DNA from: Escherichia phage ST0
DNA length: 64,000 nt
Strand: one strand, 5' to 3'
Sequence record: MF044457
Shown here: one piece after another, positions 6,702-63,797 of the stretch
Layout of the letters: each line of letters begins with the position of its first letter
Position numbering within the stretch: position 1 is the stretch's first letter
Program-made: the position numbers and the translations under genes
Notes under the pieces: model-generated
Told to the model about the DNA's origin: nothing
The model's input: the letters and a program-made list of their open reading frames with translations, nothing else
Database searches by the model: none

Positions 6702-6800
6702 GAGCCTGTTTAAAGTTTTAAATGCTGTATAACCCTTAGTATATAATCGTCTTATCTTTTAAACATGAGTAAAATATAATGATGCCTATGGAAAAATACA

Positions 6801-9759: not shown

Positions 9760-9765
9760 TAAAAA

Positions 9766-9781
9766 GGAGACTTCGGTCTCC
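9766..9781 (+). terminator. UUCG-tetraloop hairpin terminator after gene 41
   Basis: GGAGAC-TTCG-GTCTCC followed by TTTCGGGG. Confidence 0.6.
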
Positions 9782-9847
9782 TTTCGGGGTTTACATCTTC
9801 CTCTAGGCATGATATGATGTACTTACACAAACCAAGAGGAAAACACT

Positions 9848-10222: not shown

Positions 10223-10223
10223 G

Positions 10224-10252
10224 TTTACTTCTCCAGTAGTTGTGTTATTATA
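10224..10252 (+). promoter_or_regulatory. early promoter (GTTTAC -35, TATTAT -10)
   Basis: GTTTAC, 17 bp spacer, TATTAT, then AGACCTATCA extension. Confidence 0.55.
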
Positions 10253-10277
10253 GACCTATCAACTACCGGAGAACAAA

Positions 10278-10595: not shown

Positions 10596-10783
10596 GCAAA
10601 TTAACTAAAGTTACTTTTATTGGCTGGTTTAAAAGCGGTGAGATGTTCACTAAAGATATCATGTTATCAGGTGATCGCGAAGAAATCGAGTGGGTTACGG
10701 TACAACTTGCTGAAGTGAACAACGCATTAGTTAAAGCATTTGTTAATGACGAGAAAGTTTTTGAAGCTGATTTCAGAGGATAA
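10592..10783 (+). CDS. hypothetical small protein
   Basis: Start moved to ATG at 10592 overlapping the upstream stop (ATGA). Confidence 0.4.
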   Translation: MSKLTKVTFIGWFKSGEMFTKDIMLSGDREEIEWVTVQLAEVNNALVKAFVNDEKVFEADFRG

Positions 10784-10784
10784 T

Positions 10785-10997
10785 ATGTATTCAACTGTGT
10801 TTAAACCATCAACATACGAATTTGCATCAACTACACAATGGAAAGCTCTTATTCTGGAAGGATGGGAACTAATGATGGACTGTGAAGCATCTGAAAAGTT
10901 TCCACACGGCAAAGTGGACTTCGTTAAATTTGCTGTACGTCCGACTAAACGACAGATTCGTCAAGAAAAACGCAAATTTCGCAAAAGTTTAAAATAA
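10785..10997 (+). CDS. hypothetical small basic protein
   Basis: Start moved to ATG at 10785, 2 nt after the upstream stop. Confidence 0.4.
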   Translation: MYSTVFKPSTYEFASTTQWKALILEGWELMMDCEASEKFPHGKVDFVKFAVRPTKRQIRQEKRKFRKSLK

Positions 10998-11000
10998 CTG

Positions 11001-11030
11001 TTTACAAGCACCACATACTGTGTTACTATC
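11001..11030 (+). promoter_or_regulatory. early promoter
   Basis: GTTTAC, about 18 bp, TACTAT. Confidence 0.5.
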
Positions 11031-11057
11031 TTTTTATCAACTACAGAGGAAATTAAA

Positions 11058-11429: not shown

Positions 11430-11459
11430 GTTTACACCAAAGTTAAAATAAGATATTAT
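11430..11459 (+). promoter_or_regulatory. early promoter
   Basis: GTTTAC, about 18 bp, TATTAT. Confidence 0.5.
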
Positions 11460-11487
11460 AAACATAACAAATCAAGAGGAAATTAAC

Positions 11488-11740: not shown

Positions 11741-11770
11741 GTTTACATTATAGATGGACTATAGTATAGT
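11741..11770 (+). promoter_or_regulatory. early promoter
   Basis: GTTTAC, about 18 bp, TATAGT, then TAGTCCTATCA extension. Confidence 0.55.
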
Positions 11771-11799
11771 AGTCCTATCAAATCAACTAAGGAGTTAAA

Positions 11800-15624: not shown

Positions 15625-15654
15625 GTTTACAACCACTAAAAACTGTGTTAAGAT
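15625..15654 (+). promoter_or_regulatory. early promoter
   Basis: GTTTAC (duplicated GTTTACAGTTTAC), about 18 bp, TAAGAT. Confidence 0.45.
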
Positions 15655-15682
15655 ATTCTTACTTACTCAAGAGGAGAACAAT

Positions 15683-17105: not shown

Positions 17106-17134
17106 GTTTACATTCCCTCCTCTCGTGTTATGAT
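17106..17134 (+). promoter_or_regulatory. early promoter
   Basis: GTTTAC, 17 bp, TATGAT. Confidence 0.5.
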
Positions 17135-17161
17135 AGGCTTATCTTTAAATGGAGGTCTATC

Positions 17162-17743
17162 ATGACATGTCAATCTGAACTTCAAGAACGCGAATACCTA
17201 ACAAATCTGATTGATAGCAAATTCACCAACCAAGAACAAAACATTCTCTGGGCTTGCACCGATTCTAAGGAAGACCCGGATTTCCACTATGAATTAGACC
17301 ATCTTGTTCGTAAGCATATGACTTCTACAGTACCAGTAGAACTCTACCGTGGTGTAACTCCAGAAGAAGTAGAACGTCTTTCCCTTCTTTCTGTTGGATG
17401 TCATTGGTCTCCTGGACGAGTAACATCGTTCACAACTGATTTCAGTACAGCTCGTCAATTCTCCGGGAGCTGGGAATATCAGACGTACACTATTCTTAGT
17501 CTCAGGAATGCTCCATTCATTTTTGATTACTACCAAAACATGGTTAACATTGTACTTGCCGGAAAGAATCCTAAGCATGTTATGGAAGAAACTCGTATCG
17601 ATGTCCTAGATATGATTGAATCTGAACAAGAGTATATGGTCTCAGGTATCTCTAGATTTGAGATTGTGGAAATTGAAGACTTAGAATATGACCCTTTATC
17701 TCGGTTATACAAAATCATTCATTTGAAAATGTTGAATTTTTAG
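17162..17743 (+). CDS. ADP-ribosyltransferase, ModA/ModB family (R-S-E type)
   Basis: 193 aa; ELYRGV (Arg), VTSFTTDFSTARQF (S-x-S/T region), ESEQEYMVSG (catalytic E-x-E-like). Confidence 0.75.
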   Translation: MTCQSELQEREYLTNLIDSKFTNQEQNILWACTDSKEDPDFHYELDHLVRKHMTSTVPVELYRGVTPEEVERLSLLSVGCHWSPGRVTSFTTDFSTARQFSGSWEYQTYTILSLRNAPFIFDYYQNMVNIVLAGKNPKHVMEETRIDVLDMIESEQEYMVSGISRFEIVEIEDLEYDPLSRLYKIIHLKMLNF

Positions 17744-17772
17744 TGTACAAACTCTACCGACGATGATACTAT
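17743..17772 (+). promoter_or_regulatory. early promoter
   Basis: GTGTAC, about 18 bp, TACTAT. Confidence 0.45.
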
Positions 17773-17800
17773 ACTTTTATCAACCACAGGAGAAACCTAA

Positions 17801-18409
17801 ATGTTTATGCCGTGTAATGAATGTGAAATTGAGGAAATGGTTCGACGTGCTCAATGCCCAGACTATCAGGATATGCTTCAGTACAAAATCGATGAGCAAT
17901 TCAGTGACATTGAACAAAGTGTACTATGGCAGTGTATGGAAAACAAGCCAGACAGCATCCAACAAGATTTAAGTGCAATTGTTCGTAGAAATTGGTCTTC
18001 TTCAGTTCCTGAGACAATGTATCGTGGAATCTCTAAGAAAACTATGGCCACACTCGATGATAAAGGCGTTGGTAGTATTATTAAATTTGACAGAGTAATG
18101 AGCTTCAGCCCAGTGTTCAGTGTAGCACGTAACTTCGCTTCATATAATTTTTATGGAACATTTAATATGTTCTGCATCAAAGATGTACCATTTGCTTTCA
18201 ACTTCCGTGAACATATGCTTAATATGATTCTGGCTGCACCGTCTTGTGAGTTCAATGGAGCTTTCCCTGAAGCGACAAGACGGTCTAATGCTAGACTTAT
18301 ATCTGACGAATGTGAATTTATGCTCCCTATAGGGACTACACTGCGTGTAGATTCTATTATTCAAGATGGACGTTATACAATCTGGAATCTGTCTATTGTC
18401 GGTTACTGA
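17801..18409 (+). CDS. ADP-ribosyltransferase, ModA/ModB family (second paralog)
   Basis: 202 aa; TMYRGIS, VMSFSPVFSVARNF, SDECEFMLP follow the same R / S-x-S / E-x-E layout. Confidence 0.75.
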   Translation: MFMPCNECEIEEMVRRAQCPDYQDMLQYKIDEQFSDIEQSVLWQCMENKPDSIQQDLSAIVRRNWSSSVPETMYRGISKKTMATLDDKGVGSIIKFDRVMSFSPVFSVARNFASYNFYGTFNMFCIKDVPFAFNFREHMLNMILAAPSCEFNGAFPEATRRSNARLISDECEFMLPIGTTLRVDSIIQDGRYTIWNLSIVGY

Positions 18410-18483: not shown

Positions 18484-18512
18484 GTGTACACTACCTGAGG
18501 GCATGATATTAT
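18484..18512 (+). promoter_or_regulatory. early promoter
   Basis: GTGTAC, 17 bp, TATTAT, then AGACCTATCA. Confidence 0.5.
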
Positions 18513-18561
18513 AGACCTATCAGCTAAATGACCTAACGTCCGTAAGACAGAGGAAAATATT

Positions 18562-21626: not shown

Positions 21627-21656
21627 GTTTACAACCAAGGACGGTTGGAGTATAAT
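21627..21656 (+). promoter_or_regulatory. early promoter
   Basis: GTTTAC, about 18 bp, TATAAT. Confidence 0.55.
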
Positions 21657-21686
21657 CTTTCTATCTTAACCAAACAGGAAAACATT

Positions 21687-22243: not shown

Positions 22244-22774
22244 ATGATTACTATTGGTGAAATCCTTCGTGTATCTCCTGCTTCTCGTTCTAAAGCTGCA
22301 GGTCGTCTGGTTGAAGTAGCAGGGCTTCGTACTAACGGCATGGGACGTGTTAAAGAAGTTAAAGTTCGAATCATGCCCAGTTTTGGCGGACAAGATGCCC
22401 AGTATGCTTACGTAAGTCCTAAATTCCTGGAAAAACATATACGAGTCCAATTTGCTTCAAGCGAAGAAGTTGCACCTGCACACTTTGCTTCTGTTGAAGA
22501 AGTTGAATCACGTGATGGATACGTATGTGAATCCGCTGAGCCTAATGTACAGTTCAAATGGGCCCTTTGCAAAGGCGTTGAATTTATAACCGATAAAGAA
22601 TTTGATTACATCGACGAATACGGTTATCCAAGCACAACTGATATCATGTGTGGCTTCATTAGTGACCAATGGGTTGAAGATGGTGAAAAGCTATACAATA
22701 TCGTATTCTTAGGTGACTTCCGAGTTGTTAAAGAATCTGAAATCACTCGCTATGCTTCTCCTCGTAAAGCTTAA
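22244..22774 (+). CDS. hypothetical protein, tandem paralog family member 2
   Basis: Start at ATG 22244 (MITIGEILRVSPASRSKAAGRLVEV); C-terminus GFISDQWVEDGEKLYNIVFLGDFRVV. Confidence 0.5.
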   Translation: MITIGEILRVSPASRSKAAGRLVEVAGLRTNGMGRVKEVKVRIMPSFGGQDAQYAYVSPKFLEKHIRVQFASSEEVAPAHFASVEEVESRDGYVCESAEPNVQFKWALCKGVEFITDKEFDYIDEYGYPSTTDIMCGFISDQWVEDGEKLYNIVFLGDFRVVKESEITRYASPRKA

Positions 22775-23207: not shown

Positions 23208-23236
23208 GTTTACTTCTCCTCCGGTTTTGATATTAT
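23208..23236 (+). promoter_or_regulatory. early promoter
   Basis: GTTTAC, 17 bp, TATTAT. Confidence 0.55.
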
Positions 23237-23262
23237 AACCATATCAACCAGAGGAGAATAAT

Positions 23263-23787
23263 ATGTTAGTTTACCGCGTAGAACGTAGTTTTTGTACTCA
23301 ACGTGAATCATTACCAGGAATTGCTATCAAAGACGGTAAAGCCGTCAGAATTTGGGAAACCTCTTGGAATAAAGAACCTCGTTCGCCATACGGTTGGTCG
23401 GGCACCGACAACTCTGAAGAAACATGGGAGTTCCTTGATAAACATGGAATAATCTCAGGTAACTTCTACCATCACGGCGACAACTACAATGTCCCTAATC
23501 GTCCTACAGTAAATGAAGACAAACTCCTTGAACAAAATATCTTAAGATACTATAGAATTGAGCACACATTTGAATTGAGTGAAGATTGGGCTCAAGGGTT
23601 CTATTTTGGATTTGAAAGTGTTGACGCGGTTTATGCATGGTTTGATGACCAGGTGGATGTTGAACTCTTGAAAGCTAAAGGATACTACATCGCGGTCTAT
23701 GAAGCACCTGATTTCATCCTCGGAAGTTGTCAATTAATGTTTAGACGTTCATTGGCAGAACAAGTTGATTTTATTTTGCTAAAATGA
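23263..23787 (+). CDS. hypothetical protein
   Basis: ORF track 174 aa; RBS AGAGGAGAA. Confidence 0.5.
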   Translation: MLVYRVERSFCTQRESLPGIAIKDGKAVRIWETSWNKEPRSPYGWSGTDNSEETWEFLDKHGIISGNFYHHGDNYNVPNRPTVNEDKLLEQNILRYYRIEHTFELSEDWAQGFYFGFESVDAVYAWFDDQVDVELLKAKGYYIAVYEAPDFILGSCQLMFRRSLAEQVDFILLK

Positions 23788-23844
23788 TGTACAACAACTA
23801 TGGTCTATGATACTATAGACCTATCAAAACAAGAGGAGAATATT

Positions 23845-25155: not shown

Positions 25156-26973
25156 ATGATTAAAAATGAAATTAAGGTATTGTCAGATGTAGAACATATT
25201 AAGAAACGCAGTGGCATGTATATTGGTTCTTCGGCCAAAGAAGCCCACGAGCGTTTTTTGTTTGGTAAATATCAACAAGTTGAATATGTTCCTGGTCTGG
25301 TTAAATTAATCGATGAGATTATTGACAACTCGGTTGATGAAGCTATTCGTACATCATTTAAGTTTGCAAATAAAATCGATGTGCAAATTAAAAATAATCA
25401 AGTTTCGGTGGAAGATAACGGACGTGGTATTCCTCAAGCAATGGTCACCGACCAAAATGGTGAACAGATTCCAGGTCCTGTAGCTGCCTGGACTATTCCA
25501 AAGGCCGGTGGTAACTTTGGTGATGACTCTGAACGTAAGACCGGTGGTATGAACGGCGTCGGGAGTAGTTTAACTAATATCTTCTCTACGTTGTTTACAG
25601 GCATAACGTCAGATGGCGAAAATGAAATCACTGTTAACTGTTCAAACGGGATGGAAAACAAATCATGGTCTTCTAAGAAATCTAAAGGTAAAGGCACTAA
25701 AGTAATCTTCACTCCTGATTTCTCTTCATTTGAAGAGCATAATTTATCTCAAATTTATTTAGATATTACTTTAGACCGACTTCAAACGTTGGCAGTCGTT
25801 TATCCTGATATCAAGTTCACATTTAATGGTAAAAAGGTTGACGGTAATTTTAAACGATTTGCTAAACAATTTGGCGAAGATAACATCATTCAAGAAAATG
25901 ATAAAGTCTCTATAGCATTCACAACATCACCAGACGGCTTCCGTCATTTAACTTATGTGAATAACATCCATACTAAAAATGGTGGTCATCATGTTGAATG
26001 TGTAATGGATGATATCTGCGAACATCTTTTGCCCGGCATTAAAAAGAAATATAAGGGTATTGAAGTCACTAAAGCTCGTGTTAAAGAATGTCTCACAATG
26101 TTGATGTTTATTAGAGACATGAGCAACATGCGTTTTGATTCTCAGACTAAAGAACGTTTAACGTCAACGTATGGTGATATTCGTAATCATATCCAATTAG
26201 ATGCTAAGAAAATTGCTCAGGCACTTCTTAAAAACGAAGCCTTGATTATGCCTATTGTTGAAGCAGCATTAGCTCGTAAATTGGCAGCAGAAAAGGCTGC
26301 AGAAACTAAAGCAGCTAAAAAGGCAACTAAAGCTAAGGTTCATAAGCATATTAAAGCTAACCAATGTGGTAAAGATGCAGATACGACATTGTTTTTAACA
26401 GAAGGTGATTCGGCAATTGGTTATCTCATTGATGTTCGTGACCGTGAACTACACGGTGGATTCCCATTACGTGGTAAGGTGATGAATAGCTGGGGTATGA
26501 CATATGCTGATATGATGAAGAACAAAGAGCTCTTTGATATCTGTGCTATCACAGGTCTTATTCTTGGTGAAAAGGCAGAGAATACGAACTATCGTAATAT
26601 TGCAATTATGACCGATGCCGATCATGACGGTCTTGGAAGTATTTATCCGGCTTTGCTTGCTTTCTTTAGTAATTGGCCTGAATTGTTTGAACAAGGACGT
26701 ATTCGCTTTGTTAAAACGCCTGTAATTATTGCACAAATTGGCAAAACTCAAAAATGGTTTTATACTGTAGCTGAGTATGAAGAAGCTAAAGATACACTAC
26801 CTAAGCATAGTATTCGATACATCAAGGGATTAGGCTCCCTTGAAAAGTCAGAATATCGTGAAATGATTCAGAACCCTGTGTACGACGTAGTTAAACTTCC
26901 TGAAAATTGGAAAGAACTCTTTGAAATGTTGTTGGGTGATGATTCAGAACTTCGTAAAGAATGGATGTCCTAA
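25156..26973 (+). CDS. 39: DNA topoisomerase II large subunit, genes 39 and 60 fused in one ORF
   Basis: 605 aa; N-terminal GHKL ATPase (LSDVEHIKKRSGMYIGS, IDNSVDEA); C-terminal 130 aa match remembered T4 gp60 (IAIMTDADHDGLGSIYP...KLPENWKELFEMLLGD). Confidence 0.95.
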   Translation: MIKNEIKVLSDVEHIKKRSGMYIGSSAKEAHERFLFGKYQQVEYVPGLVKLIDEIIDNSVDEAIRTSFKFANKIDVQIKNNQVSVEDNGRGIPQAMVTDQNGEQIPGPVAAWTIPKAGGNFGDDSERKTGGMNGVGSSLTNIFSTLFTGITSDGENEITVNCSNGMENKSWSSKKSKGKGTKVIFTPDFSSFEEHNLSQIYLDITLDRLQTLAVVYPDIKFTFNGKKVDGNFKRFAKQFGEDNIIQENDKVSIAFTTSPDGFRHLTYVNNIHTKNGGHHVECVMDDICEHLLPGIKKKYKGIEVTKARVKECLTMLMFIRDMSNMRFDSQTKERLTSTYGDIRNHIQLDAKKIAQALLKNEALIMPIVEAALARKLAAEKAAETKAAKKATKAKVHKHIKANQCGKDADTTLFLTEGDSAIGYLIDVRDRELHGGFPLRGKVMNSWGMTYADMMKNKELFDICAITGLILGEKAENTNYRNIAIMTDADHDGLGSIYPALLAFFSNWPELFEQGRIRFVKTPVIIAQIGKTQKWFYTVAEYEEAKDTLPKHSIRYIKGLGSLEKSEYREMIQNPVYDVVKLPENWKELFEMLLGDDSELRKEWMS

Positions 26974-27015: not shown

Positions 27016-28116
27016 ATGAAAGTTATGTTTATCCCATCTCGTGCAGTCCCATTTAATCCTGACCGTGTACAAGGTGGCCTTGAAGCAGTACATTTAAATG
27101 TGTTGAAATATCTTGTGTCCATCGGTGCTGATATTGATTATATCGGCTTTGATAATGACACGTTTGGTGACTGGAAAGTTACACACCATCCTGTTGGTCA
27201 TCTGACTAAATTCAGTCTAGGTATGAGTTATACTATGGCTCGTAAGATTGTTGAACTAGCCGACATCCATGAATACGATTTTGTTGTTACTATGGAACCG
27301 ACTAAACTAACCGTTCAGGCAATTAAAGACGCAGGTCTCTCTAAAGTTCATAAGAATTTTATGGCAACACCATTTGAACCGGTATCTCGTGGCATTGTTC
27401 AAATTTGGGACCAGACTATTCAAATTCATAAGAATGGTGGTAAGAGTTATGCTCCTACTAAAGCCTTCCGTGAATTTGAACGTAAATATTGCCATATGAC
27501 TTCAGCTCTGACTGACAAAATTGATTATGATTATTGGCGAGCAAATCCGTTGTTTGAAGCCGAAGATTATCCGGTTATTTGTTTGAATGAGAAACCTGAA
27601 GTTCTTCCAGCGACTGATCTGATTATTAGTGCACAACGTTATGACACTAAAATGCGTCGTACTGATGTTGCTCTTGAAGCAATTAAAGCACTAGGCGAAA
27701 ATGGTATTGGTTATTGTCCTAGTAAATGGGCACCACCAGCTAAATATCCTGTTATTATTGATGCTCCACACAGTGAAATCATGGAACGTCTTAAAACAGC
27801 TAAAGCACTTATTAATACGTGTCCTGACACAGGTACGGTAGAGAATAGTTCTATTGAAGCCATCTCTAAAGGTGTCCCTGTAATCCAGTTAGCTTTTAAG
27901 GATTATCCTCATGCGACATTCGAATACGACCCAGATACTGTGCGTGTCGAAATTGATTCCTCTACTCCTAAGAAAGAAGTAGTTGCGCTTTACACAAAAG
28001 CTGTATTAGAATTCACTGACACATACGAAGCTCGAGTTAAACGTGCTGAAGCAGTATGGAAGAAGTATAATCGAGATGCAGTTGTTGCGATGTGGGATAA
28101 AATCTTCACAGCGTAA
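27016..28116 (+). CDS. GT-B-fold glycosyltransferase-like protein (candidate DNA hmC glycosyltransferase)
   Basis: 366 aa; C-terminal ENSSIEAISKGVPVI resembles the E-x-x-x-x-EA...G-x-PVI donor-binding motif of GT4-type GT-B enzymes. Lies between 39/60 and rIIA. Confidence 0.65.
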   Translation: MKVMFIPSRAVPFNPDRVQGGLEAVHLNVLKYLVSIGADIDYIGFDNDTFGDWKVTHHPVGHLTKFSLGMSYTMARKIVELADIHEYDFVVTMEPTKLTVQAIKDAGLSKVHKNFMATPFEPVSRGIVQIWDQTIQIHKNGGKSYAPTKAFREFERKYCHMTSALTDKIDYDYWRANPLFEAEDYPVICLNEKPEVLPATDLIISAQRYDTKMRRTDVALEAIKALGENGIGYCPSKWAPPAKYPVIIDAPHSEIMERLKTAKALINTCPDTGTVENSSIEAISKGVPVIQLAFKDYPHATFEYDPDTVRVEIDSSTPKKEVVALYTKAVLEFTDTYEARVKRAEAVWKKYNRDAVVAMWDKIFTA

Positions 28117-30644: not shown

Positions 30645-31592
30645 ATGTACAATATTAAATGCTTGTCCCAAGAAGAACAGTTAGAAGCTTATGGCCTGGT
30701 TGAATCAGGCAAATGGACTCGTAAAGAAATTGCCGATTACTTCGACATTTCAACAGATACTCTTCGTAAGATTGTTAAGAATTTTAAAGCAGAAGGCGTT
30801 GTCCCTGAAGCAAACGATGCCTCTTATGTAATCGAAGAAGTTCCAGAAAATGATGAACCTATTATCGGCGGACATCGTCCTGAAATCGTATGGAACGCGT
30901 CATCTAAATTTATTTCAATTATTGAAGGACGCGTAGCATACAATGCGACTCCATCAAGTCATGCAAATTTTGAAGAAATTAAAGCTAATCTGGTCGCAGG
31001 AAACCTTAATAAAGCTGTCGAACTTATTAACATCAAGAAAGCTATTAGTAAGTTTGTTGACGGTAATGTTGTTATTGAAGGTGGTAGTTTATTTTATCAA
31101 GGTATAGAGATTCGTTCTGGTCTGGTTAATCGTATTATTGATTCTATGGAAAAAGGCGAAGACTTTAAATTCTATCTACCGTTCCTTGAAAACCTGTTAG
31201 AAAACCCAAGCGAAAAAGCTGTACAACGTTTATTCGACTTCTTGGTTGCAAATGATATTGAAATCACTGAAGATGGGCATTTCTACGCGTGGAAAGTAGT
31301 TCGTAAAGATTATTTAGATTGCTATAGCGGTACATTTGATAACTCACCAGGTAAAGTTGTTTCAATGCCTCGTACTCGTGTTAACGATGATGATACACAA
31401 ACCTGCTCCCGTGGTCTACATGTTTGCGCTAAATCGTATATTCGTTACTTTGGTTCTAGCTCAGATAAAGTTGTTAAGGTTAAAGTTCATCCACGTGATG
31501 TTGTGTCCATCCCAGTTGACTATGGCGATGCTAAGATGCGTACTTGTCGTTATGAAGTAATTTCAGACGTTACTGAATTATTTGCAGAATAA
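30645..31592 (+). CDS. rIIB: rIIB protein
   Basis: 315 aa; MYNIKCL..., FLENLLENPS, DFLVANDIEITEDG, KMRTCRYEVI match remembered T4 rIIB. Confidence 0.9.
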   Translation: MYNIKCLSQEEQLEAYGLVESGKWTRKEIADYFDISTDTLRKIVKNFKAEGVVPEANDASYVIEEVPENDEPIIGGHRPEIVWNASSKFISIIEGRVAYNATPSSHANFEEIKANLVAGNLNKAVELINIKKAISKFVDGNVVIEGGSLFYQGIEIRSGLVNRIIDSMEKGEDFKFYLPFLENLLENPSEKAVQRLFDFLVANDIEITEDGHFYAWKVVRKDYLDCYSGTFDNSPGKVVSMPRTRVNDDDTQTCSRGLHVCAKSYIRYFGSSSDKVVKVKVHPRDVVSIPVDYGDAKMRTCRYEVISDVTELFAE

Positions 31593-31597
31593 TAATT

Positions 31598-31620
31598 GGG
31601 GACTTCGGTCCCCTTTTTTT
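31598..31620 (+). terminator. UUCG-tetraloop terminator after rIIB
   Basis: GGGGAC-TTCG-GTCCCC followed by seven T. Confidence 0.8.
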
Positions 31621-31634
31621 CTTTAGGGGTAATT

Positions 31635-31922
31635 ATGATTCATCCATTTGACGTATCAGAATCCAAAATTGCTAATCTTCGTGGTCATCATAAGTGTAAA
31701 TCAGTTTATTGTGCTAAATTGGTAAAACATCCTGGCGATGCACACTATGGTTGGTTAGAATGCGACGAAGTTGTTATTGAAATCCCACCGGTAGATGCAG
31801 AATATCTTGAAGAAGGTGACCGCATTTATTTTGGCGAACTACACATCAGAGGTATCTATGGTAAAGACGAACTTGGGACTGTTGAGACTGAAGAATCTTC
31901 CGACATTTATCCTGTCGAATGA
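31635..31922 (+). CDS. hypothetical protein
   Basis: ORF-track start overlaps the terminator; start moved to ATG at 31635. Confidence 0.4.
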   Translation: MIHPFDVSESKIANLRGHHKCKSVYCAKLVKHPGDAHYGWLECDEVVIEIPPVDAEYLEEGDRIYFGELHIRGIYGKDELGTVETEESSDIYPVE

Positions 31923-31938
31923 GTTTTTGACTAGTGAA

Positions 31939-32415
31939 ATGAAGGTGAAGATTGCTGACACTGCTCGGTATTCCCTGAGCCAAAATCCTGACCAAAACAA
32001 AGAAGATGTAGTTCGACGTTGTAAGGTTGCGGTCTTTGCAGAGTATGTAGTAGCAAATTGGCTAGACGGATATGTTAATAAAGGTATTGAAGACGTAGAA
32101 GACCCGTACACGTATGCATGGGACGTGTTAGCCCATCCCAAGTATTGTGGAATTCGTGTAGAAGTCAAGACACACCAGATAGATTCTAAATGGATTTCTG
32201 TTACCACAGGATACAGTGGTGATTATCCAGGTGGCAACGGAATCAACATAGGGCCCTTCTTGAACCATCGAGTCGCAGATTGCATTATTATATTAGATGT
32301 CAAAGAAACCTCACCTGACGTCTTCTCTTATTCTATAAAGTTCGTGGGAGACCATGAAGACCTAAAGAAAATCGTCCGCAAGAGCAACTACAACGGGTGG
32401 TATCTTCAACTTTAA
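31939..32415 (+). CDS. hypothetical protein (denB position by synteny only)
   Basis: ORF track 31795..32415 overlaps the previous gene in another frame; in-frame ATG at 31939 gives a 158 aa product. Confidence 0.4.
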   Translation: MKVKIADTARYSLSQNPDQNKEDVVRRCKVAVFAEYVVANWLDGYVNKGIEDVEDPYTYAWDVLAHPKYCGIRVEVKTHQIDSKWISVTTGYSGDYPGGNGINIGPFLNHRVADCIIILDVKETSPDVFSYSIKFVGDHEDLKKIVRKSNYNGWYLQL

Positions 32416-32427
32416 TTTCATAAAAGT

Positions 32428-32457
32428 GTTTACAACTAAGTAGGACTATGATATAGT
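32428..32457 (+). promoter_or_regulatory. early promoter with inverted repeat around the -10
   Basis: GTTTAC, about 18 bp, TATAGT; TAGGACTA and TAGTCCTA flank the -10. Confidence 0.55.
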
Positions 32458-32483
32458 AGTCCTATCTAAAAGAGGATAACATC

Positions 32484-32747
32484 ATGAAATTTAAATTTTT
32501 CTACGCAAAACATAAAGTAACAGGCGAATTTGTTTCAATGTACAACACTGCAGATGACGAAGGGATGATTTATACCCATTTGGGTCTATCTCATTGGGAC
32601 TCAGACGTGCCTTATATGTCATCTGAAGCCGAAATAACTCGTCTGGTTAATGGACATATGAACGACCATTTTAGTGTTATTCTTTCTAAAGACCTTAAAG
32701 AGGTTATCAACAAAGGATATATGGAACTCGCGGAAGTTGAGATATGA
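32484..32747 (+). CDS. hypothetical protein
   Basis: ORF track 87 aa; RBS AGAGGA. Confidence 0.45.
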   Translation: MKFKFFYAKHKVTGEFVSMYNTADDEGMIYTHLGLSHWDSDVPYMSSEAEITRLVNGHMNDHFSVILSKDLKEVINKGYMELAEVEI

Positions 32748-32939: not shown

Positions 32940-32969
32940 GTTTACAACAAGGTAGGATTATGGTATAGT
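32940..32969 (+). promoter_or_regulatory. early promoter
   Basis: GTTTAC, about 18 bp, TATAGT, then TAGTCCTAC. Confidence 0.55.
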
Positions 32970-32997
32970 AGTCCTACTGAAACATGAGGAACACAAA

Positions 32998-33200: not shown

Positions 33201-33230
33201 TTGTACAAACTCTTGAGAGCAGAGTATAAT
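33201..33230 (+). promoter_or_regulatory. early promoter with -10 inside a GAGAGC/GCTCTC inverted repeat
   Basis: TTGTAC, about 18 bp, TATAAT. Confidence 0.55.
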
Positions 33231-33274: not shown

Positions 33275-33721
33275 ATGTCCAAATATTTAACTCGTAAAGA
33301 CCTTCTGGCAGTTGGCGGTGAAGTTGTTGCAGTAGTTCGTAATGGCGAATACGGTTCTGAAGTTTCTAAAGAGTTTCGTTCTCGTGAAGGTTTTTACTTC
33401 TTTGTTAAAGGTTCATCTGACTGGCGTCAAGTTGCAGCACGATTCTTTGTAGGACGTCAACGTTCTAAACAAGGGTTGGATGCAATTCTTTCTCACATTC
33501 GTCAAGGCCGTTCGCAACTAGCCCGTACTATGGGCACTAACAATATTGAATATGATGTAATCTTTGTTGCAGCTAAGAACATGAAACCCCTGACTACTGG
33601 TTATGGTAAAGGACAATTGGCTCTGGCATTCACTCGCAATCATACATCAGAATATCAAACACTCACTGAAATGAACCGTCTTCTGGCAGATAATTTCAAA
33701 TTCGTTCTGCAGAGTTACTAA
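33275..33721 (+). CDS. ndd: Ndd nucleoid disruption protein
   Basis: 148 aa; QRSKQG...[34 protein letters not shown] and C-terminal ADNFKFVLQ match remembered T4 Ndd. Confidence 0.8.
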
Positions 33722-33760: not shown

Positions 33761-34064
33761 TGAGGTAATTAAAATGGTAGCATGGATTATTGCATTGCTG
33801 TGTTGGTCGTTTTTATTCGTTAACACTTTAGTTACAGGCGAAACAACAGTATTTCAACAGGCTGTGTCACAAGGTACCTTAGCGGTCTTAGCTCTTCTTA
33901 ACGTATTAAAAGGCGAGCAATGATTAAGAAAATCTTAGCAGGAGCCTTCGGGCTCTTGTTTTTGCTTACGGTTCTGTACTACGGTGTGATGTTTGGGCTA
34001 ATCCAAGTAGTGCTTTTCATTTCAGATGTTATAATGGTTATTCGTTCATTAATATGGTGAAAAT

Positions 34065-35507: not shown

Positions 35508-35536
35508 GTTTACATGTGCTTCAAACATGATATTAT
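35508..35536 (+). promoter_or_regulatory. early promoter
   Basis: GTTTAC, 17 bp, TATTAT, then AGACCTATCAAAACAAA. Confidence 0.55.
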
Positions 35537-35575
35537 AGACCTATCAAAACAAAACAACCAAATTGGAGAAATAAA

Positions 35576-35791
35576 ATGTCTAAAATGAAATTAACCCAAA
35601 ACACAACTACTCGTTTTGGTAAAGTTAAACCTGGTATGAATGCTCCCCGTAAAGCACTTGTTGAAGAATTAAATTTCTTAGAAGTTGAAATCAATTCTTT
35701 AGTGGTTCGCGGTTCAAATGGTCATCATTTAGAAAAGCTTCGTTCTAAAAAGGCAAAACTTATTGGCCTTATTAAAGAAATGAGTTTGTAA
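35576..35791 (+). CDS. hypothetical small basic protein
   Basis: ORF track 71 aa; leader and first codons near-identical to those of motA. Confidence 0.45.
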   Translation: MSKMKLTQNTTTRFGKVKPGMNAPRKALVEELNFLEVEINSLVVRGSNGHHLEKLRSKKAKLIGLIKEMSL

Positions 35792-35827
35792 ATTTTACCA
35801 GGGCTTTTGAAAAAGAGCCCAAAATAA

Positions 35828-35856
35828 AGTTTACTTTTGCTTCAAACATGATATTA
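35828..35856 (+). promoter_or_regulatory. early promoter of motA
   Basis: GTTTAC, 17 bp, TATTAT. Confidence 0.55.
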
Positions 35857-35894
35857 TAGACCTATCAAAACAAATACTAATTTGGAGAAATAAA

Positions 35895-38206: not shown

Positions 38207-38340
38207 TCTTCAGAACGTAGTAGAGGCCGAACGTGAGCGTGAGGCTTTAGTCTATAATGAACTATTAGTTCAGTTCTTGGCCTTACACTCGTACGAACAG
38301 GAAGACTATACCAATTACGTTAAAAGCGTAGAAAAAGCCG

Positions 38341-38370
38341 TTTACAATCAACACTGATATTGGTACTATA
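38341..38370 (+). promoter_or_regulatory. early promoter of asiA
   Basis: GTTTAC, about 18 bp, TACTAT. Confidence 0.5.
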
Positions 38371-38403
38371 TCCATATCAACTAAGTGGAATGAATAAAAC
38401 GTT

Positions 38404-48985: not shown

Positions 48986-49050
48986 CCAGTTTACGCTTTC
49001 AAATGAGTATGTTACTATAGATAAGTTGACTAACTGAACAAGAGGTTCAT

Positions 49051-52291: not shown

Positions 52292-52320
52292 GTTTACTTC
52301 TTCCCTAGATGTGATATTAT
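52292..52320 (+). promoter_or_regulatory. early promoter
   Basis: GTTTAC, 17 bp, TATTAT, then AGTCCTATCA. Confidence 0.55.
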
Positions 52321-52349
52321 AGTCCTATCAACAACATGAGGAAATCAAA

Positions 52350-52754
52350 ATGGAAATCGGAAAATCTTATATCATTAACCCTTTGTTTAAAGACGACTTT
52401 GTTCAAGAAGCACCACACAATAACGCTAAGATGTTAAAATTGATTGAACTCCACGGGCCTAGTTTTGTTGTAAACGGAATGGAACCTGATTATGACGGCG
52501 ATACGCCAAACGTAGTAAGTGTAACTATGGAAGATGGTACTGTATGTTCTGCCGGTGGTGAAATTGAAACTTATTTTGAGATTTATCCTGACGAGTTCAA
52601 ATACTTTATTGAGTACTTTACTGAGGTAACTTTAGAAAAGCCTCAACCTACTAACGAAGGTATAACTTTAGGTGTAACAAAAATCCATTGTATCGTAGAT
52701 GAAACCAACGTCGACGAAATCATCAAACTTTTGCAAAAAACTTTTAAAAAGTAG
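52350..52754 (+). CDS. hypothetical protein
   Basis: ORF track 134 aa; RBS GAGGAAA. Confidence 0.45.
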   Translation: MEIGKSYIINPLFKDDFVQEAPHNNAKMLKLIELHGPSFVVNGMEPDYDGDTPNVVSVTMEDGTVCSAGGEIETYFEIYPDEFKYFIEYFTEVTLEKPQPTNEGITLGVTKIHCIVDETNVDEIIKLLQKTFKK

Positions 52755-52783
52755 TGTACAATCAGATAGGGTTATGTTATAGT
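52755..52783 (+). promoter_or_regulatory. early promoter with GATAGGG/CCCTATC inverted repeat around the -10
   Basis: GTGTAC, 17 bp, TATAGT. Confidence 0.5.
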
Positions 52784-52818
52784 AGCCCTATCAAATCAAA
52801 AGTGAAGCGGAGAATAAA

Positions 52819-58612: not shown

Positions 58613-59023
58613 ATGAAAGATATTGCCGCCGAATATTCCTTTATTAAATATACAGAATTGGAGCTATTAGAAGATGCAACAATTAAAACAGTTGATGTCC
58701 CTAATAAGAAAAATGTCATATACGCTATTGCTATAGATGACGAACTTGTGTATATTGGTAAAACCAAGAATTTAAAGAAACGCATTAACTATTATCGAAC
58801 AGCCATAAATCGAAAAGACCAGACTTCAGATTCAAGAAAATCTCTTATGATTTTGGATGCCTTAATGCAAGGCAAAAAGGTTGAATTCTGGGCCCGCCAA
58901 TGTTTTGACCTTTCAGTCACCAACGAACTTGGTTCAATGACCATCGCAACAATGGACCTTGAAGAACCGCTTTTTATCAAAAAGTTCAACCCGCCTTGGA
59001 ATATCCAACATAAGAAAAAGTAG
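58613..59023 (+). CDS. denA: DenA endonuclease II (GIY-YIG family)
   Basis: 136 aa; IYAIAIDDELVYIGKTKNLKKRINYYRT carries the GIY-YIG core; C-terminus LFIKKFNPPWNIQHKKK matches remembered T4 EndoII. Confidence 0.85.
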   Translation: MKDIAAEYSFIKYTELELLEDATIKTVDVPNKKNVIYAIAIDDELVYIGKTKNLKKRINYYRTAINRKDQTSDSRKSLMILDALMQGKKVEFWARQCFDLSVTNELGSMTIATMDLEEPLFIKKFNPPWNIQHKKK

Positions 59024-59052
59024 TTTACATACCACAAGGATTGTGGTACAAT
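59023..59052 (+). promoter_or_regulatory. early promoter of rnlA
   Basis: GTTTAC, about 18 bp, TACAAT. Confidence 0.5.
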
Positions 59053-59070
59053 TTAAAAAAAACTAACTGA

Positions 59071-60206: not shown

Positions 60207-60236
60207 GTTTACAAACACCAAGGATGGTGTTACTAT
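60207..60236 (+). promoter_or_regulatory. early promoter
   Basis: GTTTAC, about 18 bp, TACTAT; lies inside the ORF-track start of the next gene. Confidence 0.5.
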
Positions 60237-60266
60237 GGCTTTTATCAACATCACGAGGAGAAAATT

Positions 60267-61398: not shown

Positions 61399-61613
61399 CT
61401 AAAGAACAGCATGAATACATTAAAGGGCTTATCTATGAATCTGAAATGGCGGCCATGATTTACGGGCGACAGATTCAACGATTAGAATCTTTGCCTCCGA
61501 CTAATGACCGCTTGTTAGTTCAGTCTCGTGCTAATCTGAAAAATGAATATCAGAATAAGTGGGCGGTAGCGACTAAAGCTCTTCATGAGTATATTGAATC
61601 TTTAGTAAAATAG
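61389..61613 (+). CDS. hypothetical small protein
   Basis: ORF track 74 aa. Confidence 0.4.
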   Translation: MPMTKEQHEYIKGLIYESEMAAMIYGRQIQRLESLPPTNDRLLVQSRANLKNEYQNKWAVATKALHEYIESLVK

Positions 61614-61642
61614 TTTACAAACTCTCGGGAGCAGAGTATAAT
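61613..61642 (+). promoter_or_regulatory. early promoter, near-duplicate of the one at 33201
   Basis: GTTTAC, about 18 bp, TATAAT inside a GGAGC/GCTCC inverted repeat. Confidence 0.55.
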
Positions 61643-61670
61643 GCTCCTATGGATAATTGAGGAAATCTAA

Positions 61671-63739: not shown

Positions 63740-63770
63740 GTTTACAACATGGTGGAGTTGTGATACTATA
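63740..63770 (+). promoter_or_regulatory. early promoter
   Basis: GTTTAC, 17-19 bp, GATACT/TACTAT. Confidence 0.45.
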
Positions 63771-63797
63771 ACTCTACCAACAAATGAGGAAATAGAA

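Follow-up and report, generated by a model that had tools for sequence, protein, structure and literature searches.

The early promoters of Escherichia phage ST0 (MF044457) carry conserved sequence well past their -35 and -10 boxes, and in a subset of them the -10 is enclosed by an inverted repeat that could fold into a stem-loop. We describe these features in a 64,000-nt stretch of the genome (the window, to whose full length all coordinates refer), with emphasis on the promoter at 32428. The interpretation that we consider probable is that these promoters are composite cassettes with two layers, one of DNA and one of RNA, in which an extended early-promoter consensus is combined with stem-loops of the promoter-early stem-loop (PeSL) type. 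ST0 is a well-supported RB69-like example of this known kind of cassette.

Between positions 31000 and 36000 the window shows 99.2% identity to Escherichia phage HX01 and 97-99% identity to many RB69-like phages (Mosigvirus), with rIIB, denB, ndd, topoisomerase subunit 52, and a transcription regulator annotated there. The early genes of the window lie on the + strand, with the exception of a minus-strand block at about 38.6-48.9 kb. Because circularity was to be avoided, promoters were located with the pattern GT[TG]TAC-N17/18-TAnnnT, which ignores all sequence after the -10. This yielded 28 sites, 23 of which are intergenic, on the + strand, and followed by a Shine-Dalgarno sequence (SD) and an ATG. 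The five remaining matches, of which three are intragenic and two lie on the minus strand, have no post -10 motif and served as internal negatives, and a site at 23811, whose weaker -35 (ATGTAC) falls outside the search filter, was counted as a 24th promoter. Among the 23, T at -15 and G at -14 each occur in 20 (a TG-extended -10), and an A-rich tract resembling an UP element is apparent from A at -42, -41, and -40 in 13, 15, and 19 promoters, respectively. The genes that follow include orthologs of T4 sp, mrh.2, modB, srd, dexA, motA, rnh, and alc. There are 24 cassette copies in the 64 kb, set in intergenic gaps of about 60-90 nt between small open reading frames (ORFs), and by their -35, -10, TG, UP-like tract, and position they can be classed from sequence as early promoters of the T4 type, read by host sigma-70.

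Positions are numbered such that the -10 hexamer occupies -12 to -7, the discriminator -6 to -1, and +1 the seventh nucleotide after the -10. This numbering was adopted because 44 of 51 T4 middle promoters with mapped starts, when aligned on the -10, begin transcription at the seventh nucleotide after the hexamer. For comparison, the same blind search of 128 kb of T4 gave 33 promoters with SD and ATG. For RB49 our own pattern-based set was noisy, whereas the published early promoter coordinates (Nolan et al., PMC1524935), of which 17 sites within 50 kb were analysed, gave a clean logo. Searches for relatives with the 87-aa ORF downstream of the focal promoter returned only three near-identical loci, and scans anchored on Srd or based on a degenerate promoter pattern were more useful.

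The initial annotation of this DNA had reported an extension of the form AG(A/T)CCTATCA behind the -10 at ten positions, and the extension is present at all of them. When up to three mismatches are allowed, TATAATAGWCCTATCA has ten matches in the window, all on the + strand, against an expectation of 1.69, and none of 100 shuffles reached ten. Nine of the ten annotated sites are recovered in this way; the other, at 32968, has the variant AGTCCTACTG, and the tenth match, at 6742 (three mismatches), had not been named. A logo continued past the -10, the check that the annotation had itself proposed, shows that conservation persists in the 23 promoters, with 8.5 bits over -6 to +8 and the consensus A G w C C T A(+1) T C A A from -6 onward. 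The discriminator has A at -6 in 17, G at -5 in 12, C at -3 in 16 (1.1 bit), C at -2 in 12, and T at -1 in 21 promoters (1.19 bit); from the start onward there is A at +1 in 21 (1.07 bit), T at +2 and C at +3 in 16 each, A at +5 in 19, and exclusively A or C at +8. Together the columns after the -10 carry as much information as the -35. If T has a background frequency of 0.30, simple arithmetic from the counts gives 21 T residues at -1 a probability near 1e-9. Of nine + strand copies of CCTATCA, eight stand exactly behind a -10, and the other strand has two copies; the motif is thus confined to promoters. There is almost no G between +1 and +8, and the distance from +1 to the SD ranges from about 8 to more than 40 nt. 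Separately, the surroundings of the 6742 match (6720-6760), the weakest of the motif search, hold TATAAT CGTCTTATCT with AATGCTGTA on its 5' side at about the position of a MotA box, and may be a middle promoter.

Within the family, -10 variants are tied to particular discriminators (TATTAT to AGACCTATCA, TATAGT to AG(T/C)CCTA), and these sub-families show the imprint of cassette ancestry. At the same time, the 16-mer TATTATAGACCTATCA is identical within a sub-family even where spacers and flanks are unrelated; without selection or conversion of very short patches, this would be difficult to account for.

The initial annotation did not recall such an extension from the T4 early promoter consensus, a doubt that the T4 genome dispels, since the identical blind search finds the same features there. 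T4 early promoters show CTATCAAC, with hairpins even stronger than those of the window, and their logo (n=33) has A or C at -3, C at -2 in 19, T at -1 in 24, A at +1 in 26, T at +2 in 24, and C at +3 in 20, followed by A A C, for 5.7 bits over -6 to +8. The 17 RB49 sites read R C a C c C A T C r A A after the -10, with C in 13-14 of 17 at three discriminator positions, A at +1 in 13, and T at +2 in 12, and stems flank the -10 there as well, for example GGGAGTAG-TAAAAT-ACTCCC. Thus a core of Y-1 A+1 T C A A is common to three genera whose -35 boxes (GTTTAC versus TTGACA) and discriminators differ. The 51 T4 middle promoters hold only 0.86 bit over the same 14 positions and do without the whole post -10 element. 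The post -10 motif and the hairpins belong to the early class, and are not general to sigma-70 -10 elements in these genomes. As the core is found in T4, RB69-like phages, and RB49 but not in MotA-dependent middle promoters, it is most likely a determinant of early firing.

The element appears, on comparison of these sequences, to separate into two parts, namely a constrained start core common to the genera and a discriminator specific to lineage or cassette, which is often the right arm of a stem. General properties of the host enzyme fit some of its positions: E. coli polymerase prefers a pyrimidine-purine start, in keeping with T-1/A+1, and sigma region 1.2 contacts the discriminator, in keeping with G at -5. 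This leaves C-3 C-2 and T C A A unexplained. The ST0 promoters resemble the published T4-type early consensus in GTTTAC, the TG-extended -10, A-rich sequence at -42, and C at -3 to -1 (Liebig & Ruger 1989 and Miller et al. 2003, cited in PMC2988021; logos in PMC1524935). C at -3 to -1 was noted for RB69, RB49, and 44RR (Nolan et al. 2006, PMC1524935), and "additional regions of consensus" in T4 early promoters were mentioned by Hinton 2010 (PMC2988021). The RB69 model of Nolan et al. spans 51 nt and ends near the start site (PMC1524935), unlike the consensus described here, whose T C A A (A/C) part lies outside it. In the literature open to reading we found no explicit description of the T4 +1 region, which Liebig & Ruger 1989 or Miller et al. 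2003 may hold, and the accessible texts on the published early consensus contain no discussion that we could find of class specificity relative to middle promoters or of spacer pairing. Early-class specificity measured against mapped middle promoters, the fixed register of the dyad, and the G·U bias described below may not be in print.

The second feature of these promoters is the inverted repeat. The initial annotation had described repeats flanking the -10 at the focal site and at 52765, and both are there. At the latter (52765-52792), GATAGGGTTA pairs with TAGCCCTATC; at the focal promoter, TAGGACTA (32441-32448) pairs with TAGTCCTA (32457-32464), and one additional U·G pair makes a 9-bp stem with the loop GAUAUA, which contains most of the -10. 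Folded as RNA, the focal hairpin has a predicted energy of -13.4 kcal/mol (z -2.75); folded as DNA, it is marginal (-5.1 kcal/mol, z -1.3). It lies about 25 nt after the upstream stop codon and ends about 8 nt before the SD, with A-rich sequence next. The SD is unpaired with a predicted probability of 0.58 in read-through RNA and 0.57 in the primary transcript, so the focal hairpin does not mask the SD. It may instead serve in attenuation, as a barrier to processing or decay, or in the insulation of cistrons. By spacing, the focal promoter corresponds to RB69 Pe:165795, a promoter predicted in 2006 with the top score of 58 (Nolan et al., PMC1524935): promoters 32428, 32940, and 33201 are 512 and 261 nt apart, like Pe:165795, Pe:165283, and Pe:165022.

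Complementarity of this kind was tested across the promoter family. To quantify it, the -35 plus spacer of each promoter was paired with the 32 nt that follow the -10, taken either from the same promoter or from the others. Own pairings are stronger than cross pairings in the window (-8.8 versus -6.7 kcal/mol; 0 of 20,000 permutations, p<5e-5) and in T4 (-11.9 versus -7.4 kcal/mol, p<5e-5). The mean fold z is -1.23 in the window (7 of 23 promoters below -2), -2.48 in T4 early promoters (18 of 33), and only -0.19 in T4 middle promoters (4 of 54), so that an individually significant hairpin is found in about a third of the window promoters. In the minimum-energy folds of 43 of 56 window and T4 promoters, at least five pairs enclose the -10. 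In the commonest register (nine promoters) the dyad axis falls between -12 and -11, and other registers reach further downstream. Chance is ruled out as the origin of the motif and of the repeats by the shuffles and cross controls.

The stems also covary, and this is likewise observed directly. An IMG/VR scan with GTTTAC-N13-TATRN-TATAGTAG, combined with window and T4 matches, gave 22 distinct 46-mers, in which about five probable chance matches were retained to guard against bias. The structure with register i+j=1 has 86.0% of its cells paired in these sequences versus 76.8% after shuffling (0 of 500), with a covariation score of 0.331 versus 0.176 (0 of 500); 7 of its 11 pairs change on both sides, and slid registers reach only 31-64%. 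Mismatches within stems are G·U far more often than A·C (18 versus 4, binomial p 0.004). Since each sense-strand G·T corresponds to an A·C on the opposite strand, this bias argues for a single-stranded structure of the sense strand and against a cruciform. Individual cassettes give the same picture. For example, the motB-type stem reads GGGACC/GGTCCC in T4 and GGGAGC/GCTCCT at 61613 in the window; an IMG/VR phage with a 74% identical Srd has GGGGTC/GACCCC, and another IMG/VR phage has GGGGCC/GGTCCC (with one G·T). At the sp promoter, the window has the stem GATGGACTA/TAGTCCTATC, phages of the 74% group have GGGATAAT/ATTATCCC or GGGATAATA/TATTATCCC, and T4 has none. The promoter at 63740, together with the start of its downstream ORF, resembles the T4 Pe at 133307, with stem GGTAGAGTT/AGCTCTACC.

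RNA is the natural candidate for this single strand because the early genes are co-directional and transcripts from upstream cross the promoters downstream; extension of early transcripts has been described (PMC2988021). The left arm lies upstream of +1, and the hairpin therefore exists only in read-through RNA. The stem structure thus probably forms in the sense-strand RNA of read-through transcripts. Upstream of the rnh promoter at 48989 there is no gene in the same direction, and neither the window nor T4 has a hairpin there; this single case fits the read-through idea.

In some promoters (10223, 23208, 9789, and 17106) the right arm is the SD or start codon itself. Predicted SD accessibility is lower in read-through RNA than in primary transcripts (0.40 versus 0.64, p 5e-6), a difference that is lost against the control with foreign upstream sequences (0.38). 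Complete masking of the SD is still predicted in 14 of 55 promoters versus 10.7% of cross combinations (p 0.0016). Predicted masking of the SD or AUG at the dexA and modB promoters is kept in the T4 orthologs with different sequence.

We postulate, then, a cassette with two layers. In the DNA layer, the consensus would run past the -10 through the discriminator (A-6 G-5 w C-3 C-2) to T-1, A+1, and T C A A (A/C). The start core most likely helps early promoters to fire at one defined A with the unmodified host polymerase, and would in addition leave early mRNAs with a 5' end free of structure and of G; AGWCC is probably more specific to lineage and cassette. In the RNA layer, which may be present in a third to half of the promoters, the spacer would be complementary to sequence just past the -10. 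The promoter itself would transcribe the right arm alone, and the hairpin would form only when transcripts read through from an upstream early promoter, where it may mark and insulate the boundary between cistrons. In about a quarter of the promoters the predicted hairpin buries the SD or AUG of the next gene; in others, including the focal one, a local hairpin of 9-11 bp about 8 nt upstream of the SD is probably an attenuator or a barrier affecting processing or stability. Finally, the repeated cassettes may act as recombination substrates through which small ORFs are inserted or deleted.

Several observations weigh against this interpretation. The +1 position of the ST0 promoters is carried over by analogy with T4 middle promoters. 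Among close relatives, the discriminator (-6 to -1) changes about as often as the spacer, and +1 to +8 about half as often, in a sample of few events that one promoter dominates; part of the AGWCC consensus may thus reflect cassette ancestry or spacer pairing and not contact with polymerase. The registers of the hairpins are heterogeneous, and about half of the promoters have none. The covariation score and the G·U counts ignore relatedness among the sequences, and duplex energies differ only weakly between sense and antisense (p 0.17 with all promoters, 0.024 with strong stems only). As for translation, mean SD accessibility is the same with own as with foreign upstream sequence (0.40 versus 0.38), so there is no specific effect on the mean, and with looser thresholds the excess of complete masking dwindles. 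No U-tract follows the focal hairpin, which was not called in a + strand terminator scan; classical intrinsic termination is therefore unlikely there.

Other explanations have to be weighed against the two-layer cassette. Perhaps nothing beyond the -35 and -10 has a function, and both the post -10 sequence and the palindromes are residues of cassette copy-paste or gene conversion. Such pure descent, which we consider unlikely, would account for the sub-families, for the near-identical cassettes at 35508 and 35829, for cassettes shared with T4 before unrelated genes, and for a discriminator that, in close relatives, keeps pace with the spacer in its rate of change. It is difficult to reconcile with the identical 16-mer between unrelated spacers and flanks, with a core that recurs in RB49 beside another -35 and discriminator, with middle promoters that have no core, and with stems kept by two-sided changes whose mismatches are biased to G·U. 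The initial annotation had suggested a binding site for a phage or host factor. For the inverted repeats this is not supported, because their arms differ and covary between promoters, and a dimeric protein operator on the repeat is ruled out on the same grounds; the suggestion could still apply to the constant TATCAA core. We regard it as highly unlikely that -6 to +8 is an operator or determinant for such a factor, be it an agent of early shut-off or polymerase modified by Alt or ModA. The element is indeed early-specific, confined to promoters, and placed where repressors commonly act, and the mechanism by which early promoters are shut off 2-3 min after infection has been called unknown (PMC2988021, PMC3014915). 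However, its constant part has neither dyad nor repeat, no candidate protein has been identified, and, as summarised in Hinton's review, a mutational study found no single position that accounts for the Alt effect (PMC2988021). An IHF site (WATCAANNNNTTR) is rejected as well, as TATCAA matches only the WATCAA half of the consensus and no TTR lies four bases downstream in the listed window promoters. Furthermore, the likeness of the core to the starts of T7 A1 and lambda PL suggests tuning for the polymerase itself.

The remaining alternatives concern the level at which the repeats or the start core would act. We give hardly any credence to an action in double-stranded DNA, either by extrusion of a cruciform or hairpin at the -12/-11 fork or as a target of recombination or nucleases, even though the commonest dyad axis lies at -12/-11, where the transcription bubble begins, the cassette pair at 35508/35829 has suffered an indel, and the authors of the PeSL work speculated on a DNA-binding recombination protein and saw blocks in sequencing reactions (PMC2839356). 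A cruciform requires both strands to pair, and the 18 G·T pairs of the sense strand, against only 4 of the opposite kind, are A·C on the other; in addition, the focal stem is marginal as DNA, registers vary widely, and long-range stems that reach the SD make sense only as RNA. That the hairpins are intrinsic terminators or attenuators of the upstream gene, as proposed for PeSLs, seems distinctly improbable. The position of the focal hairpin just past the upstream stop would suit that role, as would the RB49 PeSL that reduced lacZ expression like rrnB T1 (PMC2839356), yet the + strand stems are A/U-rich, only 9-11 bp long, and followed not by a U-tract but by A/C-rich sequence of the ATCAAAAC type. 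Without a GC-rich stem directly followed by a U-run, they are rejected as intrinsic terminators. Hairpins that do look like terminators were called nearby on the + strand, at 31598-31613 and 33937-33960 (GC-rich stem, TTCG tetraloop, T5-7), and their shape is unlike that of the promoter hairpins; the one at 31598-31613 overlaps the start of an ORF at 31596-31922. The initial annotation had also offered a transcript 5' leader element, which could apply to +1 to +8 only, as -6 to -1 is not transcribed from its own promoter. It is quite unlikely that +1 to +8 is above all such an element, an unstructured A/C-rich 5' end that tunes ribosome loading or 5'-end-dependent decay, with the upstream half a mere pairing partner. 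The near absence of G, the fixed place at the extreme 5' end, and retention of the core in three genera would favor it; the wide range of distances to the SD and the lack of transcription of the strongest columns, -1 and -3, do not, and the present results do not separate RNA from DNA constraint at +1 to +8.

The cassettes are best compared with PeSLs, whose published stem-loop, drawn with G-T pairs, lies between the boxes or overlaps the -10 (Arbiol et al. 2010, PMC2839356), and for which a terminator/attenuator assay and mini-circles were reported (PMC2839356; Comeau et al. 2014, PMC4122927). One RB49 PeSL stem-loop cut lacZ expression as much as rrnB T1 (PMC2839356), and this reporter result is the sole experimental anchor for a role of the hairpin. 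ST0 shares with PeSLs the A/T tract, sigma-70 -35 and -10, a stem-loop that lies inside the promoter or overlaps it, a small ORF with its SD and ATG, many copies in the early or hyperplastic regions, and an ORF between two cassettes that is gained or lost among close relatives (here 35508/35829). In contrast to the GGGG-loop-CCCC stems of RB49 and phi1, ST0 stems are A/T-rich and of the TAGGACTA, GATAGGG, or GGTGGAG type; lineage-specific stem sequences are, however, accepted for PeSLs (Comeau 2014, PMC4122927). For the T4/PST pair, Comeau 2014 drew the stem-loop upstream of the promoter, whereas the significant stems in ST0 and T4 enclose the -10. The PeSL papers did not cover RB69-like phages, and the ST0 stems have no U-tract. 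The stem-loop, individually significant in 7 of 23 window and 18 of 33 T4 promoters, is a feature of a subset.

Recombination at a cassette can be seen at one locus. An IMG/VR phage that is 95-97% identical lacks 35585-35819, which comprises the 71-aa ORF 35576-35791 and one of the two cassettes, and the junction, directly visible in its sequence, is chimeric and falls inside the repeated cassette, with upstream sequence and 5' UTR from copy 1 and the coding start (motA) from copy 2. This looks like a cassette-mediated insertion or deletion, the PeSL signature. In addition, promoter 61613 resembles the T4 motB promoter (28 of 35 masked positions) and 10223 the T4 denV promoter (29 of 35), with unrelated genes downstream; such cassettes travel separately from the genes behind them. 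Five T4 early promoters (27056, 55360, 70672, 163649, and 167062) share about 40 nt from the -10 through the SD (TACTAT ACAACTATCAACTACTGATAC(G/A)GA...GGAGAAT), which are repeated cassettes before different small genes. Further indels separate the window from a close relative, namely extra segments of 203 bp (10774-10976, ending 23 nt before the -35 at 11000) and 438 bp (17181-17618, taking in most of a ModB-like ORF between two promoters), a 55-bp indel at about 22472-22528, and, in the relative, a 795-bp insertion at about 26965 in the gap between ORFs 25156-26973 and 27016-28116. The indels at 10774-10976 and 17181-17618 are near cassettes, with junctions that are not within one.

Parallels exist in other systems. 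In T4 e, soc, 49, and I-TevI, a 5' arm upstream of an internal start pairs with a 3' arm on the SD or AUG, so that only internally started transcripts are open (PMC3014915). The same logic would apply to about a quarter of the ST0 promoters (10223, 23208, 9789, and 17106) but not to the focal one, and it differs in timing, as the T4 internal promoters are late (or middle) and cause a temporal delay, whereas in ST0 the internal promoter and the read-through transcript are both early. The starts of T7 A1 (...CC ATCGAG) and lambda PL (...C ATCAG), strong coliphage promoters served by the host polymerase, share with ST0 early promoters a pyrimidine at -1 and A+1 followed by T C, but these are single promoters and not a family-wide consensus, and we know of no paired spacer in either. 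Phage N4 also has inverted repeats at its early promoters, where the hairpin is a recognition element for the virion RNA polymerase on extruded single-stranded DNA; ST0 differs in its ordinary sigma-70 boxes, its variable arms, and evidence that points toward RNA.

The promoters and their elements are collected in Table 1.

Table 1. Early promoters of the ST0 window and elements of the focal promoter (z values are for RNA folds; pairing and start positions are predicted)
Feature	Position	Strand	Remarks
Focal promoter, A/T-rich UP-like tract	32406..32427	+	begins 9 nt before stop codon of upstream ORF 31795-32415
Focal promoter, -35 hexamer GTTTAC	32428..32433	+	spacing equivalent to RB69 Pe:165795
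Focal promoter, left arm TAGGACTAT	32441..32449	+	inside 18-nt spacer; pairing i+j=1 from first -10 base
Focal promoter, -10 TATAGT after TGA (extended -10 TG)	32452..32457	+	TATA in loop, GT in stem
Focal promoter, right arm GTAGTCCTA	32456..32464	+	spans -10 end, discriminator, +1
Focal promoter, post -10 extension	32458..32471	+	AGTCCT (-6..-1), putative start A 32464, initial transcribed ATCTAAAA
Focal promoter, SD GAGGA 32472-32476 and ATG 32484	32472..32486	+	87-aa ORF 32484-32747
Sister promoter	32940..32983	+	TAGGATTAT/GTAGTCCTA hairpin with G·U pairs, then AGTCCTACTG; z -2.96; spacing as RB69 Pe:165283
Third promoter, TGTACA-N17-TATAAT	33202-33230		upstream of ORF at 33275; outside strict -35 filter; spacing as Pe:165022
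11-bp hairpin GATAGGGTTAT/GTAGCCCTATC around TATAGT	52754..52797	+	z -4.0
Hairpin GGTGGAGTT/AACTCTACC	63740..63783	+	z -3.57
Arms GGGAGC/GCTCCT	61613..61656	+	resembles T4 motB promoter (GGGACC/GGTCCC); gene differs
Spacer TTCTCCAGTAGTTG pairing with CAACTACCGGAGAA, SD included	10223..10277	+	z -3.63; masking predicted in read-through RNA only
dexA-type, spacer TTCTCCTCCGGTT pairing with AACCAGAGGAGAA (SD)	23208..23262	+	z -4.55
Anti-SD spacer TCTTCCTCT pairing with AGAGGAA	9789..9847	+	
modB-type, -10/discriminator ATGATAGGC pairing with start-codon region GTCTATCAT	17106..17164	+	T4 equivalent ATGATAGC/GCTATCAT
sp (spackle) ortholog promoter	11741..11784	+	arms GATGGACTA/TAGTCCTATC, AGTCCTATCA
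srd promoter, TATTAT AGACCTATCA	18484..18526	+	no significant hairpin
-35 ATGTAC, TACTAT AGACCTATCA	23787..23830	+	7-bp stem, register i+j=1
First of near-identical cassette pair, TATTAT AGACCTATCAAAAC	35508..35550	+	33/35 masked positions identical
Second cassette, motA promoter	35829..35871	+	with 35508 flanks 71-aa ORF 35576-35791
TATTAT AGTCCTATCAAC	52292..52334	+	
TACTAT CTTTTTATCAAC	11000..11043	+	TATCAAC core without AGWCC, no hairpin
TACTAT ACTTTTATCAAC	17743..17786	+	
TATAAT CTTTCTATCTTAACC	21627..21670	+	intra-spacer stem CCAAGGACGGTTGG
TACTAT ATCCATATCAAC	38340..38383	+	
Intra-spacer stem ACACCA/TGGTGT	60207..60250	+	TATCAAC displaced by one base
Intra-spacer stem CCACAA/TTGTGG	59023..59066	+	without TATCAA core
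rnh promoter	48989..49032	+	first + strand promoter past minus-strand block; no hairpin, weak motif; T4 ortholog alike
TATTAT AAACATAACAAATC	11430..11473	+	A at +1, degenerate core, no hairpin
mrh.2-type, TAAGAT ATTCTTACTTAC	15625..15668	+	no hairpin

A few further observations concern the surroundings of these promoters. A GC-rich hairpin of terminator-like appearance, GAGACTTCGGTCTC, with CTTTCGGG after it (9765-9790), lies directly 5' of the -35 at 9789. In the srd 5' UTR (18527-18560), CGTCCGTAAGA is kept in the window, in T4, and in a third lineage despite differing promoters and discriminators, and may be an RNA operator or processing site. The adjacent ORFs 17162-17743 and 17801-18409 match T4 ModB (38% and 32% identity), each with an early promoter of its own, and the first of them is largely missing from a close relative.

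It is tempting to speculate further that the early-only start element (the Y-1 A T C A A core together with its C-rich discriminator) could be the handle by which all early promoters are shut off at 2-3 min, and that the hairpins could make the translation or stability of each early cistron depend on the origin of its transcript. We consider this quite unlikely; if it were so, the hairpins would amount to a genome-wide "transcript-origin" code and not to terminators.

These findings do not overturn current views of T4-type early transcription, but they do add to them. Annotation usually reduces T4-type early promoters to the -35 and -10, although some 14 further positions carry information equal to that of the -35, and promoter models that include these early-specific positions, found in three genera, would identify early promoters more cleanly. 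The element also provides a defined sequence with which to approach two questions, namely how early promoters outcompete those of the host and how they are shut off, and the ORF at 35576-35791 adds a case from the RB69 group to the PeSL model of gene shuffling. Finally, the covarying, G·U-tolerant stems indicate that read-through and promoter-proximal transcripts fold differently, which bears on the distinction between immediate-early and delayed-early expression in these phages.

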